Below are positions 32,273-44,288 of a stretch of 64,000 nucleotides of DNA, in pieces. Made by a program: the position numbers and the translations under genes. Source of the DNA: an uncultured Nitrososphaerales archaeon. GTDB taxonomy: Archaea > Thermoproteota > Nitrososphaeria > Nitrososphaerales > Gagatemarchaeaceae. Every line of letters begins with the position of its first letter. The stretch's first letter is position 1. Under the pieces are notes generated by a model that saw nothing but the letters and a program-made list of their open reading frames with translations, was not told where the DNA came from and made no database searches. The DNA is taken from the NCBI GenBank assembly GCA_963706445.1, contig OY970160.1, positions 352,001-416,000 of the forward strand, in the 5' to 3' direction.

Positions 32273-32908
32273 ATGGTTGAAGTGAAAGTCCTAGAGGACA
32301 CTGGGAATTCGGTCTCCCTGCAGCTCGAAGGAATCGACAGGTCCTACGCCAACGCTGTCAGGAGGTTCTGCATCTCCGAGGTCCCGGCCATGGCTATAGA
32401 CGACGTGGTGATACTGGAGAACTCCTCAGTCCTCTACGACGAGATACTCGCACACAGGCTGGGGATGATCCCCATCAAGACCGACCTCTCGAGGTACAAC
32501 CTCCCCGAGGAGTGCGACTGCGGCAACCCACTCGGGTGCCACAAGTGCCGCGTCTTGTTCGTCCTTGACGCCAAGGGCAAGGACAAGGTCACCACGGTGA
32601 TGTCCGGGGACCTCGTCTCAGAAGACAGGGAGATTAGACCAATCAGCGAGACGATCCCGCTCGTCAAGCTGGCCACTGGCCAGTCGGTCAAGCTCGAGGC
32701 GTACGCGCGGCTGGGCCGCGGGAAGGAGCACGCAAAGTGGCAGCCCTGCAGCATCGCCGCCCTCACCGACGGCAAAAAGGAAGGGACGTTCAACCTGACC
32801 GTCGAGTCCGCAGGGGGACTCCCGGCAAGAGAGATAGTCATGAAGGCCATCGAGCTTCTCGAGAAGAAGCTGAAGGAGATCCAGGTCGCCGTAGGTGGCG
32901 CCCAATGA
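32273..32908 (+). CDS. rpoD: DNA-directed RNA polymerase subunit D (Rpo3)
   Basis: NAVRR, NSSVLYDEILAHRLG, GKEHAKW. Confidence 0.96.
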   Translation: MVEVKVLEDTGNSVSLQLEGIDRSYANAVRRFCISEVPAMAIDDVVILENSSVLYDEILAHRLGMIPIKTDLSRYNLPEECDCGNPLGCHKCRVLFVLDAKGKDKVTTVMSGDLVSEDREIRPISETIPLVKLATGQSVKLEAYARLGRGKEHAKWQPCSIAALTDGKKEGTFNLTVESAGGLPAREIVMKAIELLEKKLKEIQVAVGGAQ

Positions 32909-33258
32909 CCTCGTCCAACCCGGTCAAGAGGCACACCACCGTGATGCTCGAGCGCGCAGGCAAGAAGCAGGAGGCGCCCATCTGGAGAGAAGCGTCCGCA
33001 ATGCTGTCGAACCCCGCCGTCAACCGCATAGAGGTCAACCTGTGCCGCATCTCGCGAATGGCCGAGAACGGGCAGGCCATCTTCGTCCCAGGCAAGGTCC
33101 TCGGGACGGGGGTCATGGAAAGAAAGCTCACCGTGGGGGCGTTTGCCTTCTCCGCCAGTGCGAAGGCGAAGATCGAGGCTTCGGGCGGGTCAGCCGTTTC
33201 AATCGAGGAGTTCCTGAAGAAGTACCCGAAAGGGAGTGGGGTAAGACTTGTCAAGTAA
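32905..33258 (+). CDS. rpl18e: 50S ribosomal protein L18e
   Basis: VPGKVLG.G, FSASAKAKI; ATG at 32905. Confidence 0.94.
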   Translation: MTSSNPVKRHTTVMLERAGKKQEAPIWREASAMLSNPAVNRIEVNLCRISRMAENGQAIFVPGKVLGTGVMERKLTVGAFAFSASAKAKIEASGGSAVSIEEFLKKYPKGSGVRLVK

Positions 33259-33688
33259 CGAGACCATCTACATCGACGCCACCAACCAGATAGCGGGGAG
33301 GCTCTCCTCGAAGGCGGCCAAGCTCATCCTCTCGGGCAAGAGAGTTATCATCGTCAACGCAGAGAAGGCACTGATTTCGGGTGACCGCACCTCGGTCATC
33401 AACCAATGGAAGGAGAAGCTTGAGTTGTCCAGCCACGTCAACCCGATCTACGGCCCCATCCACCCGCGGAGGCCCGACAACATCCTCCGAAGGATGATCA
33501 GGGGGATGGTCCCGAGGAAGAAGTCAAAGGGTCCCATCGCGATGAAGAGGCTCAGGGTGTTCATAGGGGTCCCGTCGTCGGTCGACGCCACGAAGCTCAG
33601 CAAGTTCGAGGAGACAACGGCGACCCGGCCGATCCCAGTCTACGTCACCATGGGCGACCTTTCAAAGAGCCTGGGATGGAACGAATAA
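33248..33688 (+). CDS. rpl13: 50S ribosomal protein L13
   Basis: IDA..IAGRL, NAEK, IRGMVP. Confidence 0.96.
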   Translation: MSSNETIYIDATNQIAGRLSSKAAKLILSGKRVIIVNAEKALISGDRTSVINQWKEKLELSSHVNPIYGPIHPRRPDNILRRMIRGMVPRKKSKGPIAMKRLRVFIGVPSSVDATKLSKFEETTATRPIPVYVTMGDLSKSLGWNE

Positions 33689-33690
33689 CC

Positions 33691-34122
33691 ATGCCAACCT
33701 CTACTCCGAAGGCCCAGGTCAAGAAGCCGCCGAAGCTATACTCAGGCGCGAGGAAGACAGCACGTGCCACGGCTGCCATAGTCCTAGGTGGTGGGAAGAT
33801 CAGGATCAACGGGACCCCGGTCGAGATCTGGGAGCCGGAGCCGGCGAGGCTGCACCTGCTGGGCCCCGTTCTGGTCGTGGGGGAGCTGAGAGAGAAGTAC
33901 GACATCGATGTGAGCGTCGCCGGAGGAGGGTTCATGGGCCAGGCTGACGCCGCCGCCATGGCAATCGCCAGGGCCTATGTCGACCAGGTCAGAGGGAGCG
34001 AAGTTCGGGAGAAATTGAATGCATACAATAAATACCTGCTATCGGGCGACCCGCGACAAGCTGAGCCCAAGAAATTCGGCGGTCCAGGCGCCCGCAGAAA
34101 GCGCCAGAAGAGCTACCGCTGA
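33691..34122 (+). CDS. rps9: 30S ribosomal protein S9
   Basis: GARKTARA, GGGFMGQA, EPKKFGGPGAR..QKSYR. Confidence 0.97.
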   Translation: MPTSTPKAQVKKPPKLYSGARKTARATAAIVLGGGKIRINGTPVEIWEPEPARLHLLGPVLVVGELREKYDIDVSVAGGGFMGQADAAAMAIARAYVDQVRGSEVREKLNAYNKYLLSGDPRQAEPKKFGGPGARRKRQKSYR

Positions 34123-34158
34123 CCTGGGTCGTTAAATAGAAAATCGTACTCCTCAAAT

Positions 34159-34767
34159 GTGCGCAGCCGGTTTCCTCCTCGGTTAATCAGAATCACCCGA
34201 GCCGAATTCTTGAGAGTAATGAGCACATCGGCGACGACCAAGGAAGCATCAAAGAAGCTTGGAATACCTTGCGAAGCCTTCCGTAGAATGCGAAGAAAGT
34301 TCCGAAACCCTCCGCAGAATTCGGAAGGCATTGACTTTGTAGCACTTTATCGAGCAAGACCTCCTATACCTAGAGTCATCATCCGAACCAAAGATGGGCG
34401 TCGATATGTAGGAACTCTGGTCGGCACTGAGGGTTGCGTTACATGCGCATACGCCAAACCCGCAGACACCACAGAACTCGTGATAGTAGTTGAAATGACC
34501 GATAGGGATTGGATTGTGAAGTTCTCGGAAGAGGTTGGGCTGACCCCTCCGCCAGAGATGGGCAGGGATGTCAGTCCGAAGCGAAAGGCCAAGTTCCGTC
34601 GAGCTCCCTCTGGCCTGCGCGCTTTGAGAATCCTCAAGGAGATACTCCCGTATTTGTATGGCCAGCGTCTCAGGGAAGCTCAAAGGGCGATTGAATACTT
34701 CTCTCCTTCTGGCCATGTGAAAGGAATGGTGAGGGCAGCCGAAATCTGGGGAGACTTGCGCCTATAG
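34159..34767 (+). CDS. Free-standing LAGLIDADG-like homing endonuclease (single motif) with N-terminal HTH-like region
   Basis: YVGTLVGTEGCV motif helix, 'VEMTDRDWIVKF', 'ALRILKEILPYL..R.REA'; lower GC; own TTAAATA box at 34132. Confidence 0.7.
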   Translation: MRSRFPPRLIRITRAEFLRVMSTSATTKEASKKLGIPCEAFRRMRRKFRNPPQNSEGIDFVALYRARPPIPRVIIRTKDGRRYVGTLVGTEGCVTCAYAKPADTTELVIVVEMTDRDWIVKFSEEVGLTPPPEMGRDVSPKRKAKFRRAPSGLRALRILKEILPYLYGQRLREAQRAIEYFSPSGHVKGMVRAAEIWGDLRL

Positions 34768-34821
34768 GCGATATCCATATATTCAGACTCCAAAAGCGCA
34801 GGTTTGAGTTACAGATAGCCT

Positions 34822-35031
34822 ATGATGATACCAATCCGTTGTTTCACCTGCGGGAACCTCATCGGGGACAAATTCGCTCCATTCCAGACAAGGGCGAAGT
34901 CCGGCGAAGACCCGGGCAAGGTGCTGGACGACCTCGGCCTGAAGAGGTACTGCTGCCGCAGCATGCTCATCTCATCCATCGACGTGATCGACCAGGTCCT
35001 CCCGTTCTACAGCCGGAAGGCCGAAATCTAA
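34822..35031 (+). CDS. rpoN: DNA-directed RNA polymerase subunit N (Rpo10)
   Basis: [14 protein letters not shown]. Confidence 0.97.
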
Positions 35032-35049
35032 GGGACTGACGGATTGGGT

Positions 35050-35742
35050 ATGTCAGAGTTCGATGACGACGAAGCCGGTTCGGCCGACACCATGGTCGTC
35101 CACGGGCTCTCCGAGAAGGCCCTGTTGGCGACGGGAATCCGCATCGGCACTCCGGTGAGGACCAAGACGATGGAGCAGTTCACAGCTAGGCCCCGACCAG
35201 ACGGACTCCACATGATAGACTACGCCAAGACCCTCCAGCGCATTGACATCGCGGGCAAGTTCATCGCCTCCACGGGGGCCAAGAACACCGTGGTCTACAC
35301 CAGCCGCGAGCACGGCGCCATGGCCGTCGAGAAGTTCTGCGAGCTCACGGGCGCCATGAAGCGCATCGGAAGGTTCATGCCAGGGACCTTCACCAACCCC
35401 CTCTACCCCGGACACCTCGACGCCGAACTTGTGGTTGTGGCAGACCCGATGTCTGACGCCCAGGCCATAATTGAAGCCGGGAAGCTCGGGGTCCCGGTCA
35501 TATCGATCTGCGACACGGACAACGTCACCGACGACATCGACCTGGTCATCCCCGGCAATAATCGCGGTCGCAAGGCGATAGCGGCCATTTTCTGGCTGCT
35601 GGCGAGGGCGACCCTCACACACTCTGGCCTCCTAGCGGAGGACCAACCCATGAAGTACACCATAGAGGACTTCGAGACCAAGATGGAGGAGCAGCCGCAG
35701 TCCGACATGCTGGACGAACGCTCGTCCGACAGACCAGAATAG
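35050..35742 (+). CDS. rps2: 30S ribosomal protein S2
   Basis: GRFMPGTFTNP, CDTDN, PGNNRG. Confidence 0.96.
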   Translation: MSEFDDDEAGSADTMVVHGLSEKALLATGIRIGTPVRTKTMEQFTARPRPDGLHMIDYAKTLQRIDIAGKFIASTGAKNTVVYTSREHGAMAVEKFCELTGAMKRIGRFMPGTFTNPLYPGHLDAELVVVADPMSDAQAIIEAGKLGVPVISICDTDNVTDDIDLVIPGNNRGRKAIAAIFWLLARATLTHSGLLAEDQPMKYTIEDFETKMEEQPQSDMLDERSSDRPE

Positions 35743-42553: not shown

Positions 42554-42928
42554 AAGAAGCCCTACTACATCAAGTTCGAGACCCCCAAGGAGGTCTCAGA
42601 AGCCGCCTACGAGGTACTCAGGCAGGCCTCGCGGACTGGCAAGGTCCGCAAGGGGACCAACGAAACGACGAAGGCCATCGAAAGGGGACTTGCGAAGCTC
42701 GTGGTGATAGCCGAGGACGTCGTGCCCCCGGAGGTTGTCGCCCATCTGCCCATCCTCTGTGACGAGAGGAAGATACCATATGTCTTCGTGCCTTCGAAGG
42801 ACCAGATAGGGCCCGCCATCGGCATCGACGTCTCGACAGCTGCGGCTGCGGTGCTTGAAGCCGGCGAGGGCTCCCAGATCCTCGACCAGGTCACCCAAGA
42901 GCTTTCGAGGCTGAAGAAGCCAGCATGA
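42542..42928 (+). CDS. rpl7ae: 50S ribosomal protein L7Ae
   Basis: [26 protein letters not shown]. Confidence 0.97.
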
Positions 42929-43143
42929 GCAGCAAGAGAGAAGCTGAGACACTAACCCCGTCGGAAGTGGTGCAGATTGTGGGGAGGACAGGAGTAGCCG
43001 GCGAAATAACCCAAGTCAGGGTCAAAATCCTAGAAGGGAAGGAAAAAGGGCGTATTTTGACCAGAAACGTCAAAGGACCGATTAGATTGGCAGACGTGCT
43101 CGTTTTAAGAGAAACTGAGCGAGAAGCGAGAAAGCTCAAATAG
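42925..43143 (+). CDS. rps28e: 30S ribosomal protein S28e
   Basis: [29 protein letters not shown]. Confidence 0.97.
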
Positions 43144-43200: not shown

Positions 43201-43938
43201 TCAATCCCTTAGTTCAATGACTAGTTCGAAACTGGCGAGTCTTCGGGTTGAGAAGAGTAGGTCGAAAGCAAAACCCTCGCTCTCTCTCTTGTCGGGGTGC
43301 CATAAGAGTCGTCCAACTTGGTCCAGCCATTTCCTATTCGCACCAGAAAGGATTTCGATCAAGTAGCTATTCTTTCTAGTCACTATTTCTATGCCCCTCA
43401 GAGAATGTCTTCACCCTCGCCTGCTTGCCAGCCGGGTCCGAACAGAGGTTGGCTCCAAGCGGATCTTGTTGACGAGCGATAATCTGGCGATTCCAAGTAG
43501 GCGTCTGTCACTATTGATTACTGCGAAAATGCGACCATGGGGAGATTCGATGGGCTCTGGCAGGACTAAACTACTTTCCGCGTCACTTAATCCGCCTTGA
43601 AAATCGGCCGCGATACGACCTTCCATCGCAATCGAGTGGATTGAATCATATTTTGGCTGCATGGAGTCATCGAACAACGCTCTACGCACCAAAGTCGAGT
43701 TCAGGACAATGTTGTGCTGTAGGTTGTCAGACAAGTTTCAGGGTCGGACGTATTCACGAGACGTTCCACCACATTCCTTTGCAATCTGCTGAACTATGCC
43801 CACGAGCTTGTCGGCGAAAACCGGATTGGCTGTAACGACCCTTACCTCACCCCATGCGGGGTACCCATCGCCGTATGCGAGGCCCGCGAAATGTGCAAGT
43901 TCGGAGTCGACGACTACGGTATGTGCGGTTCCCCACAA
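43201..43938 (-). pseudogene. Two-motif LAGLIDADG (DOD) endonuclease interrupted by two in-frame TGA codons
   Basis: Three track ORFs share one frame; motifs LAHFAGLAYGDG and ADFQGGLSDAES; TGA at 43738-43740 and 43411-43413. Confidence 0.75.
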
Positions 43939-44105: not shown

Positions 44106-44288
44106 ATGTATGTTCCAAAGAAATGCGCGTTCTGTGGGAAGGAAGTCAGACTCGGCTCCGGCATCCTGTTCGTGAAGAACGACGGGTCTACGCGTTCCTA
44201 CTGCTCCTCAAAGTGCAAGACCAACGAGCTGAAGCTGGGTCGCGATCCGAGGAAGCTGAAATGGGCGCGGGGGACTAACAGGAAATGA
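44106..44288 (+). CDS. rpl24e: 50S ribosomal protein L24e
   Basis: CAFCG..G.G...VKNDG...YCSSKC, PRKLKW. Confidence 0.96.
   Translation: MYVPKKCAFCGKEVRLGSGILFVKNDGSTRSYCSSKCKTNELKLGRDPRKLKWARGTNRK

Follow-up and report, generated by a model that had tools for sequence, protein, structure and literature searches.

LAGLIDADG homing endonucleases are metal-dependent enzymes that cleave a site of ~18–22 bp and leave 4-nt 3′ overhangs, and members with a single motif act as homodimers packed through their motif helices. Archaeal representatives have been described from rRNA introns and inteins, and free-standing genes that spread with co-conversion of adjacent markers are established in T-even phages. 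Archaeal LAGLIDADG genes have been reported within group I introns (PMC6125680), and at cob and atp6 of Endoconidiophora resinifera free-standing LAGLIDADG/GIY-YIG open reading frames (ORFs) lie between the gene and a duplicated 3′ end (PMC6279837). Our literature search found no paper on free-standing LAGLIDADG copies in archaeal chromosomes. Here we describe a candidate for such a copy in a 64,000-nucleotide stretch of the genome of an uncultured Nitrososphaerales archaeon (GenBank contig OY970160.1, positions 352,001 to 416,000; the whole stretch is called the window below), where a single gene coding for a protein with a helix-turn-helix (HTH) segment and a LAGLIDADG-like motif sits between rps9 (uS9) and rpoN (RNA polymerase subunit N/Rpb10). 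We put at roughly 0.7 the probability that a divergent HTH-LAGLIDADG subfamily is represented here by a free-standing homing endonuclease gene, located exactly at the rps9/rpoN junction without an intron or intein.

The best structural matches to the window protein are I-CreI, I-MsoI and I-CvuI (Z 10.0–10.8, root-mean-square deviation (rmsd) 3.0–3.3 Å), with which it shares a single LAGLIDADG helix that ends in an acidic residue followed by Gly, as well as a core of similar size. There are also differences. These three enzymes are homodimers encoded by group I introns of algal chloroplast 23S rRNA, whereas the window gene stands alone between protein genes, and the window protein has an extra N-terminal HTH of ~50 residues and only 14–15% sequence identity to them. 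The archaeal enzymes I-Vdi141I, I-DmoI and PI-PfuI, which come from rRNA introns or inteins, share with the window element the fold (Z 8.0–8.2), an archaeal host and a selfish homing lifestyle, but those enzymes sit within introns or inteins, which splicing removes from the product of the host gene, whereas nothing is spliced in the window element. In its genomic arrangement the element instead resembles the seg and mob genes of T-even phages, which use intronless homing and are likewise single genes placed between conserved genes and patchy among relatives. Those phage genes code for GIY-YIG or HNH enzymes in virus genomes, in contrast to the LAGLIDADG protein in a cellular chromosome seen here.

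The structural evidence comes from an AlphaFold2 model of the 202-residue protein, built on an 11-row alignment and having a mean predicted local distance difference test (pLDDT) score of 83.4. The model contains an N-terminal three-helix HTH domain (residues ~14–49, window positions 34198–34305; helices 14–23, 27–34 and 38–49 at pLDDT 80–87) that a low-confidence linker joins to an alpha-beta-beta-alpha-beta-beta-alpha-alpha domain spanning residues 78–180. The elements of this domain (helix 78–90, strands 92–99 and 104–113, helix 116–126, strand 146–148, helices 152–165 and 168–180) include the alpha-beta-beta-alpha-beta-beta-alpha order of the LAGLIDADG core fold. A Foldseek search of the PDB with this model returned LAGLIDADG enzymes as all of its best matches, namely I-CreI and its variants, I-CvuI and I-MsoI (probability 1.0, E 3.5e-4). 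Structural alignment with VIA-align gave Z 10.8 and an rmsd of 3.0 Å over 114–116 residues for the top matches I-CvuI, I-CreI and I-MsoI, and the best 50 rows contained LAGLIDADG proteins only, with the bI3 maturase and WhiA lower down. Specifically, residues 71–200 of the model (34369–34758) superpose on residues 2–135 of I-CreI with Z 10.5–10.8. All coordinates given for this locus refer to the plus strand.

Independently of the fold, profile comparisons place the same protein among LAGLIDADG sequences. A word-indexed search of 5.8 billion proteins recovered five relatives, to which genome searches added more, and an exhaustive hidden Markov model search with a profile of 11 relatives returned 6560 proteins at E ≤ 1e-3, 46 of them at E ≤ 1e-30. 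Among 77 distant matches, whose best stretch lay over the core, LAGLIDADG_3 was detected in 56 and LAGLIDADG_1 in 28, and many of these proteins also contained an HTH. When the profile of close relatives was aligned with the Pfam-positive set using hhalign, the match had a probability of 99.85% (E 1e-30) and put YVGTLVGTEGCV on WLAGLLEGEGSF, so that YVGTLVGTEG of the window protein falls on WLAGLLEGEG with the motifs in register. The HTH gave weak profile matches to HTH proteins and aligned by hhalign with the HTH of proteins that combine an HTH with LAGLIDADG_3. Additional matches in the ESM Atlas, all within LAGLIDADG clusters at scores below 0.9, are treated as leads only, and PHROGs contributed one weak match to a family labelled HNH endonuclease (E 9e-5).

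The motif helix, YVGTLVGTEG at residues 83–92, ends in a conserved acidic residue followed by Gly (VGTLVGTEG, residues 84–92). The residue at the catalytic position of this motif, Glu91 (putative catalytic residue, codon GAG at 34429–34431), does not vary among 11 relatives and is conserved at 90% or more across 41. The same level of conservation among the 41 relatives is exhibited by T105, M113, D115, P131, G152, R154, A155, L159, E161, P164, L166, G168, A174 and G189. At position 170 each of the 11 aligned relatives has Lys or Arg, a pattern by which this position may match the active-site Lys of I-CreI. Overall, the window protein has the LAGLIDADG fold with a conserved acidic motif residue and belongs to a divergent subfamily that is seen by profile and fold only. 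A sequence-only reading of this DNA had proposed LAGLIDADG likeness from this motif and its acidic residue, which it took as refutable by a lack of structural similarity, and had pointed to an HTH-like N-terminal segment and a C-terminal ILPYL helix. The model and profiles agree with all of these proposals, as residues 26–47 of the HTH-like segment lie within modelled helices 27–34 and 38–49, ILPYL lies within helix 152–165, where P164 is conserved along with L166 beyond it, and the similarity to LAGLIDADG proteins reaches the Z and hhalign values given above.

Relatives from the same archaeal family bear on how this one-domain protein might function. Many of them have an HTH and two LAGLIDADG domains in one chain of 383–585 residues, and others consist of an HTH-domain gene followed by a domain-only gene. 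We modelled one fused member of 383 residues (L047; pLDDT 83.1, predicted template modelling score 0.73), and over both domains this model aligned with single-chain I-MsoI at Z 19.0 (250 residues, rmsd 4.0 Å), with single-chain I-CreI at Z 18.2, and with the natural monomers I-AniI and I-OnuI at Z 15–16.6. Both motifs of this protein retain a GEG ending, and the catalytic-position Glu is present in both domains of fused relatives. The fused relative is thus modelled as a canonical pseudo-dimer, which gives indirect support that suggests that the one-domain window protein works as a homodimer.

The gene itself extends from 34159 to 34767 with a GTG start and its stop codon within these coordinates, and codes for 202 amino acids. 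The public gene call for the same ORF starts at an ATG at 34219 and gives 182 amino acids. The longer form is favored by three observations. Specifically, residues 8–20 of this form (LIRITRAEFLRVM) align with the N-termini of the relatives P0002 and P0003, an element in another genome (G119) likewise has a GTG, as far from its TATA-like box as in the window element, and the AlphaFold2 model folds the stretch of residues 8–20 confidently (pLDDT 83–87). The G+C content across the ORF is 0.50–0.54 compared with 0.59–0.65 in both flanks, as the sequence-only reading had noted when it described a 202-residue, lower-GC ORF between rps9 and rpoN. The ORF is separate from both neighbors, lying between the stop of rps9 (33676–34122; protein 80–90% identical to that of congeners) and the start of rpoN (34822–35031). 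Note that no Rfam family reaches threshold in 33600–35300, so there is no sign of a group I or other intron, and an intron was dropped as an explanation for lack of an RNA family match. Likewise, Pfam detects no intein domain in the window protein.

We compared rps9 and rpoN coordinates in 97 genomes of the family, of which ~90 have both genes on one contig, with the genomes other than the window genome (G000) being mostly incomplete metagenome bins. The rps9–rpoN spacer is 703 nt in the window versus 7–13 nt in 21 congeners, which corresponds to an insert of ~690 bp made up of one gene plus short flanks. The junction is empty in ~81 genomes, where the spacer is 7–21 nt, and a full element with a spacer of 696–703 nt is found in five genomes, namely G000 (genus g1), G064 and G065 (both g25), G097 (g28) and G098 (g29; locus L039 of a groundwater metagenome-assembled genome). 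An internally deleted copy that lacks roughly residues 104–174 occurs in G119 (g1; spacer 494 nt). The same gene family is therefore located at the same nucleotide position in six genomes from four genera. In addition, G062 (g24; L081, C38:126800-127700) has a spacer of 85 nt with no ORF that starts AGT TAT CGT TAA agtggtgg TTAAGAATATC, an almost exact match to the left end of the element in G064, and this spacer is the footprint of a lost element. Two further genomes (G100 and G101, both g31) contain short inserts of 185–188 nt that may be remnants and, to judge from a short and weak similarity, may keep a trace of the C-terminus of the ORF. Thus, the occurrence of empty, full, decayed and scarred alleles of one junction shows the window gene to be an inserted cassette, and the distribution among relatives, which had been put forward as a check, turns out to be patchy across the ~90 genomes, with empty sites, decay and loss. 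As a separate observation, a genome from another family of the same order (L034 in G051; 218-1500) has a 1284-nt insert at rps9–rpoN that contains no LAGLIDADG gene and has two opposite-strand genes, coding for a membrane-anchored winged-HTH-like protein and a secreted-looking protein. The rps9–rpoN junction accepts other cargo too.

When element identities are compared with host-marker identities, the latter based on concatenated rps9 and rpoN and thus on two short proteins only, the two do not follow each other. For example, the elements of G064 and G065, which belong to the same genus, are 42% identical at a host-marker identity of 88%, whereas those of G064 and G097, from different genera, are 62% identical at a host-marker identity of 73%. 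Similarly, the G119 element is 40% identical to that of its congener G000 (48% by tblastn over the N-terminal part; host-marker identity 90%) and 69% identical to the metagenome protein P0003, for which a host-marker identity is not applicable. Element similarity contradicts host similarity, which in these sequence comparisons points to horizontal movement.

A maximum-likelihood tree of 49 domains groups the proteins of the rps9/rpoN site with P0002–P0004 in one clade with a support of 96 (SH-aLRT, the Shimodaira-Hasegawa-like approximate likelihood ratio test). Using site groups defined by clustering of flanking ORFs, the tree also recovers a clade beside a 3-hydroxyacyl-CoA dehydrogenase gene (SH-aLRT 97) and a clade after an rps26e-like gene (SH-aLRT 98), while proteins upstream of rpl10e split into a few clades. 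One protein lineage per chromosomal site is predicted by site-specific homing and also by syntenic inheritance, and homing is favored by the patchiness, the decay and the host-element incongruence. The sister sites have their own features. Directly upstream of rpl10e and on the same strand, ~19 genomes of the family (L003, L041, L044-L059, L063) contain relatives that mostly have an HTH and two LAGLIDADG domains, either fused (383–585 residues) or as two adjacent genes, some with internal stops. The clade of L002, L060, L062 and L065 lies between a thioesterase-like gene and the 3-hydroxyacyl-CoA dehydrogenase gene, with the L065 copy broken by four stop codons, and the clade of L008, L064, L066 and L068 lies just downstream of the rps26e-like gene.

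The left border of the insert differs with the state of the junction. In all occupied and remnant alleles rps9 ends in TAY CGN and a stop codon, after which a TTAA(A/G) box follows at 8–9 nt. The last Arg codon of rps9 (CGC at 34117–34119 in the window, before the TGA stop at 34120–34122) was CGC in five, CGT in three and CGG in one of the nine occupied or remnant alleles, with no CGA and no AGG/AGA, whereas the 24 empty alleles had AGG/AGA in 21 cases, CGG in two and CGA in one, with no CGC or CGT. A CGY codon is thus present at this position in 8 of 9 occupied or remnant alleles versus 0 of 24 empty ones, an association that overstates its significance, since the genomes are non-independent, and to which no formal probability is attached. 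The contrast persists inside genus g1 and inside genus g25, which suggests that the element takes this final codon of rps9, at the least, along with it. A travelling last codon is expected if the flank adjacent to the break is co-converted, and the element-linked CGY codon would be the analogue of flank co-conversion in the phages. A longer co-conversion tract in rps9 was considered and rejected, as the last 60 nt of rps9 are identical at 55 of 60 positions to the nearest empty congener, and a dip in the G+C content of third codon positions near the 3′ end of rps9 is seen in empty alleles too.

At the other end of the insert, the 16 nt directly before the rpoN ATG (34806–34821) consist of GAGTTACAGATAG plus the 3-nt spacer cct. 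In four empty congeners (L011, L019, L021 and L026) the native rps9 ends in this 13-mer, with no difference in its distance from the ATG. Its score was reached by 0 of 2000 shuffles, and G119 has a weaker version of it (AAGATAAgcc). We infer that the 13-mer is a fossil of the rps9 3′ end, displaced at the first insertion of this element sub-lineage and now serving as the rpoN 5′ leader. As in the E. resinifera mitochondrial ORFs, the endonuclease ORF would follow the host gene with a displaced copy of the 3′ end beyond it; unlike in E. resinifera, the fossil in the window has 13 nt (at most 26) and not hundreds, and it is in an archaeal chromosome rather than an organelle. The idea that 26 nt of the rps9 end are directly repeated on the two sides of the insert was not retained, as only the 13-mer is robust and the extra 7-mer AAAGCGC, which also pairs with ORF-internal sequence, may be chance. 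By-eye inspection of the empty junction for two-fold symmetry gave nothing convincing. A 15-nt imperfect inverted repeat (80% complementary) was also observed between ORF-internal positions 34614–34628 and positions 34788–34802 just downstream of the ORF.

Both ends of the insert contain promoter-like boxes. The left end (34123–34158) is comprised of a 9-nt spacer after the rps9 stop, the box TTAAATA (34132–34138), which occurs twice in the 64-kb window, and 20 nt leading to the GTG. Among the orthologous elements, those of G098, G064, G065, G097, G119 and G062 have a TTAA(A/G) box in the corresponding position, with the TTAAG variant in G064, G065, G097 and the G062 scar, and the spacing from box to start is 20 nt in G119 and 21 nt in G098. 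Archaeal transcription initiates ~22–27 nt downstream of the TATA center, and with the 20-nt spacing the mRNA from this putative promoter would thus be leaderless. The right end contains a second TATA-like box, CCATATAT, at 34775–34782, a single occurrence in the window that lies 39 nt before the rpoN ATG. Counterparts at similar distances are CCATATATC in G098, CCATAAATCC in G119 and GGTATATCC in G065, while in G064 and G097 the downstream box is degenerate or absent and the ORF reaches up to or over the rpoN start, so that the box is conserved in three of the five other occupied alleles. This pattern is consistent with a cassette that brings a putative promoter for rpoN in part of the clade only. 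The two boxes recorded by the sequence-only reading, TTAAATA positioned for a leaderless transcript and a TATA-like sequence between the ORF and rpoN, are both where it had placed them, as is the inserted cassette that it had proposed.

These observations can be assembled into a proposed homing cycle. As in I-CreI, two copies of the window protein would pair via their motif helices, and the HTH would add a further DNA-binding module to the dimer. The dimer would cut the uninterrupted rps9–rpoN junction of element-free chromosomes, a junction that is coding on both sides and strongly conserved, and repair of the break from an occupied allele would fill the cut site with a copy of the gene together with the final rps9 codon beside it. 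As the insertion would split the target, occupied alleles would be immune. The cassette's own TATA box would give rise to a leaderless mRNA, and in this sub-lineage the second TATA-like box may supply transcription of rpoN and of the genes that follow, so that the host operon would suffer less.

Several points weigh against interpreting the element as a homing endonuclease gene. The direct hidden Markov model check that the sequence-only reading had proposed (LAGLIDADG_1/_3) came out negative in Pfam, where the protein gave no match to LAGLIDADG_1, _2 or _3 even at E ≤ 10 and only sub-threshold noise. A direct NCBIfam scan of the protein gave no match, and PDB sequence searches with two profiles returned weak HTH matches and I-HjeMI at E 0.88 only. 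Of the close relatives, only 1 of 41 has a weak Pfam LAGLIDADG_3 match. The Pfam failure reflects the sensitivity of the models and not the fold. Secondary active-site residues, the counterparts of I-CreI Q47, R51 and K98, could not be mapped on the window protein, and leaderless translation from a GTG start is usually inefficient. The 13-nt fossil is not predicted by simple homing; to account for it, an illegitimate insertion must have come earlier, or the fossil must move along with the element. Elements at the site are 41–62% identical, so the pattern could in part represent old lineages sorted by loss and not recent transfer. In one genus the rpl10e-upstream sister clade is common, with family members present in 18 of 23 genomes, a frequency that might point to domestication within this genus. 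The non-independence of genomes that affects the codon association belongs here as well. Finally, cleavage at a target site, dimer formation and the use of both promoters are all steps that we infer.

Some of these same points would also fit an intact-looking but catalytically dead relic of a homing endonuclease gene that once invaded the site and has ceased to cut, with a frame that is open by chance or through a secondary role and that will decay as in G119 and G062. Decay is common at this site, as the decayed copies and scars show, the secondary active-site residues could not be mapped, the Pfam models fail on the protein, and GTG is a weak start for a leaderless mRNA. However, wherever conservation among the 41 relatives reaches 90% (15 positions, E91 and R154 among them), the window protein has the consensus residue, and five orthologues that have diverged to 41–62% identity keep open frames of ~200 codons, which argues for continuing selection. 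A dead relic is an unlikely explanation overall. An even less likely explanation is that the gene codes for a domesticated LAGLIDADG-HTH DNA-binding protein that, like WhiA or an intron maturase, has a host role, in this case regulation of the ribosomal-protein/RNA-polymerase operon. WhiA also combines a LAGLIDADG fold with an HTH (fold match 8dy9_I, Z 7.9), the window gene is within an operon and has promoter-like boxes, and the rpl10e-upstream sister clade is frequent in one genus. Yet in WhiA both LAGLIDADG domains are degenerate, the HTH is C-terminal and inheritance is vertical and stable, whereas the window protein has one domain with the acid kept, an N-terminal HTH and a sporadic distribution. 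WhiA and the intron maturases are not known to have the catalytic acidic residues, whereas the catalytic-position Glu is conserved in the window protein and in both domains of its fused relatives. A host regulator would also be stably inherited, in contrast to the sporadic occupancy (5 full elements among ~90 genomes), the decayed copies, the 85-nt scar and the host-element incongruence.

The gene could also be cargo of another mobile element, such as an insertion sequence, an integrative element or a virus remnant, that landed at this junction by chance. The G+C content below that of the surroundings and the unrelated genes held by the same junction in another family of the order would fit such an origin. 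We nevertheless consider it very improbable, as transposase, integrase and tRNA genes are absent along with terminal inverted repeats, the insert contains one gene and short flanks only, and one gene family recurs at one position in six genomes of four genera. An insertion sequence or a miniature inverted-repeat transposable element (MITE) specifically was rejected for the absence of terminal inverted repeats and of a transposase. A free-standing homing endonuclease gene thus remains our preferred explanation of the element.

The host operon is an archaeal ribosomal-protein/RNA-polymerase operon of a Nitrososphaerota (Thaumarchaeota) archaeon. In the window it runs from rpoD (32273–32908) through an L18e-like gene and rpl13 (33248–33688) to rps9, and after the insert and rpoN continues with rps2 from 35044. 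Other LAGLIDADG-like frames are present in the same genome. One of them, a 245-codon frame on the minus strand (43201–43938) between rps28e (42925–43143) and rpl24e (44106–44288), has two in-frame TGA codons and the LAGLIDADG-like motifs AGLAYGDGY and GGLSDAESS. With its TGA codons read through it gave no Pfam match, and hhalign to the LAGLIDADG set reached a probability of only 10%; this frame is probably a decayed element of another family. Outside the window, the same genome (G000:C1) contains Pfam LAGLIDADG_3 matches at 283788–283937, 1386765–1386968, 302855–303133 and 1709558–1709731, within long open frames of 1086, 541, 372 and 600 amino acids, respectively, and these may be intein-borne endonuclease domains.

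Beyond the single locus, it is an even question to us whether the HTH-LAGLIDADG genes are active archaeal free-standing homing cassettes, with each clade tied to one essential-gene junction, with promoters of their own that keep the interrupted operon functional, with a full cycle of invasion, decay and loss, and with an HTH that extends target recognition. If an active cassette family is correct, then it would amount to a new natural scaffold for meganucleases, available within a single family as both single-chain and homodimeric enzymes, and these compact enzymes of ~200 amino acids with an added HTH, together with their natural fused relatives, are candidate sources of new cleavage specificities. 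Present domain models miss the subfamily, which is consequently annotated as hypothetical. Within one archaeal family it shows free-standing copies at fixed essential-gene junctions and every stage of the homing cycle, and it could reveal in what way a selfish gene can enter a core operon and leave the host alive. The presence or absence of the insert, together with the linked rps9 codon, could also mark gene flow among uncultured Nitrososphaerota.

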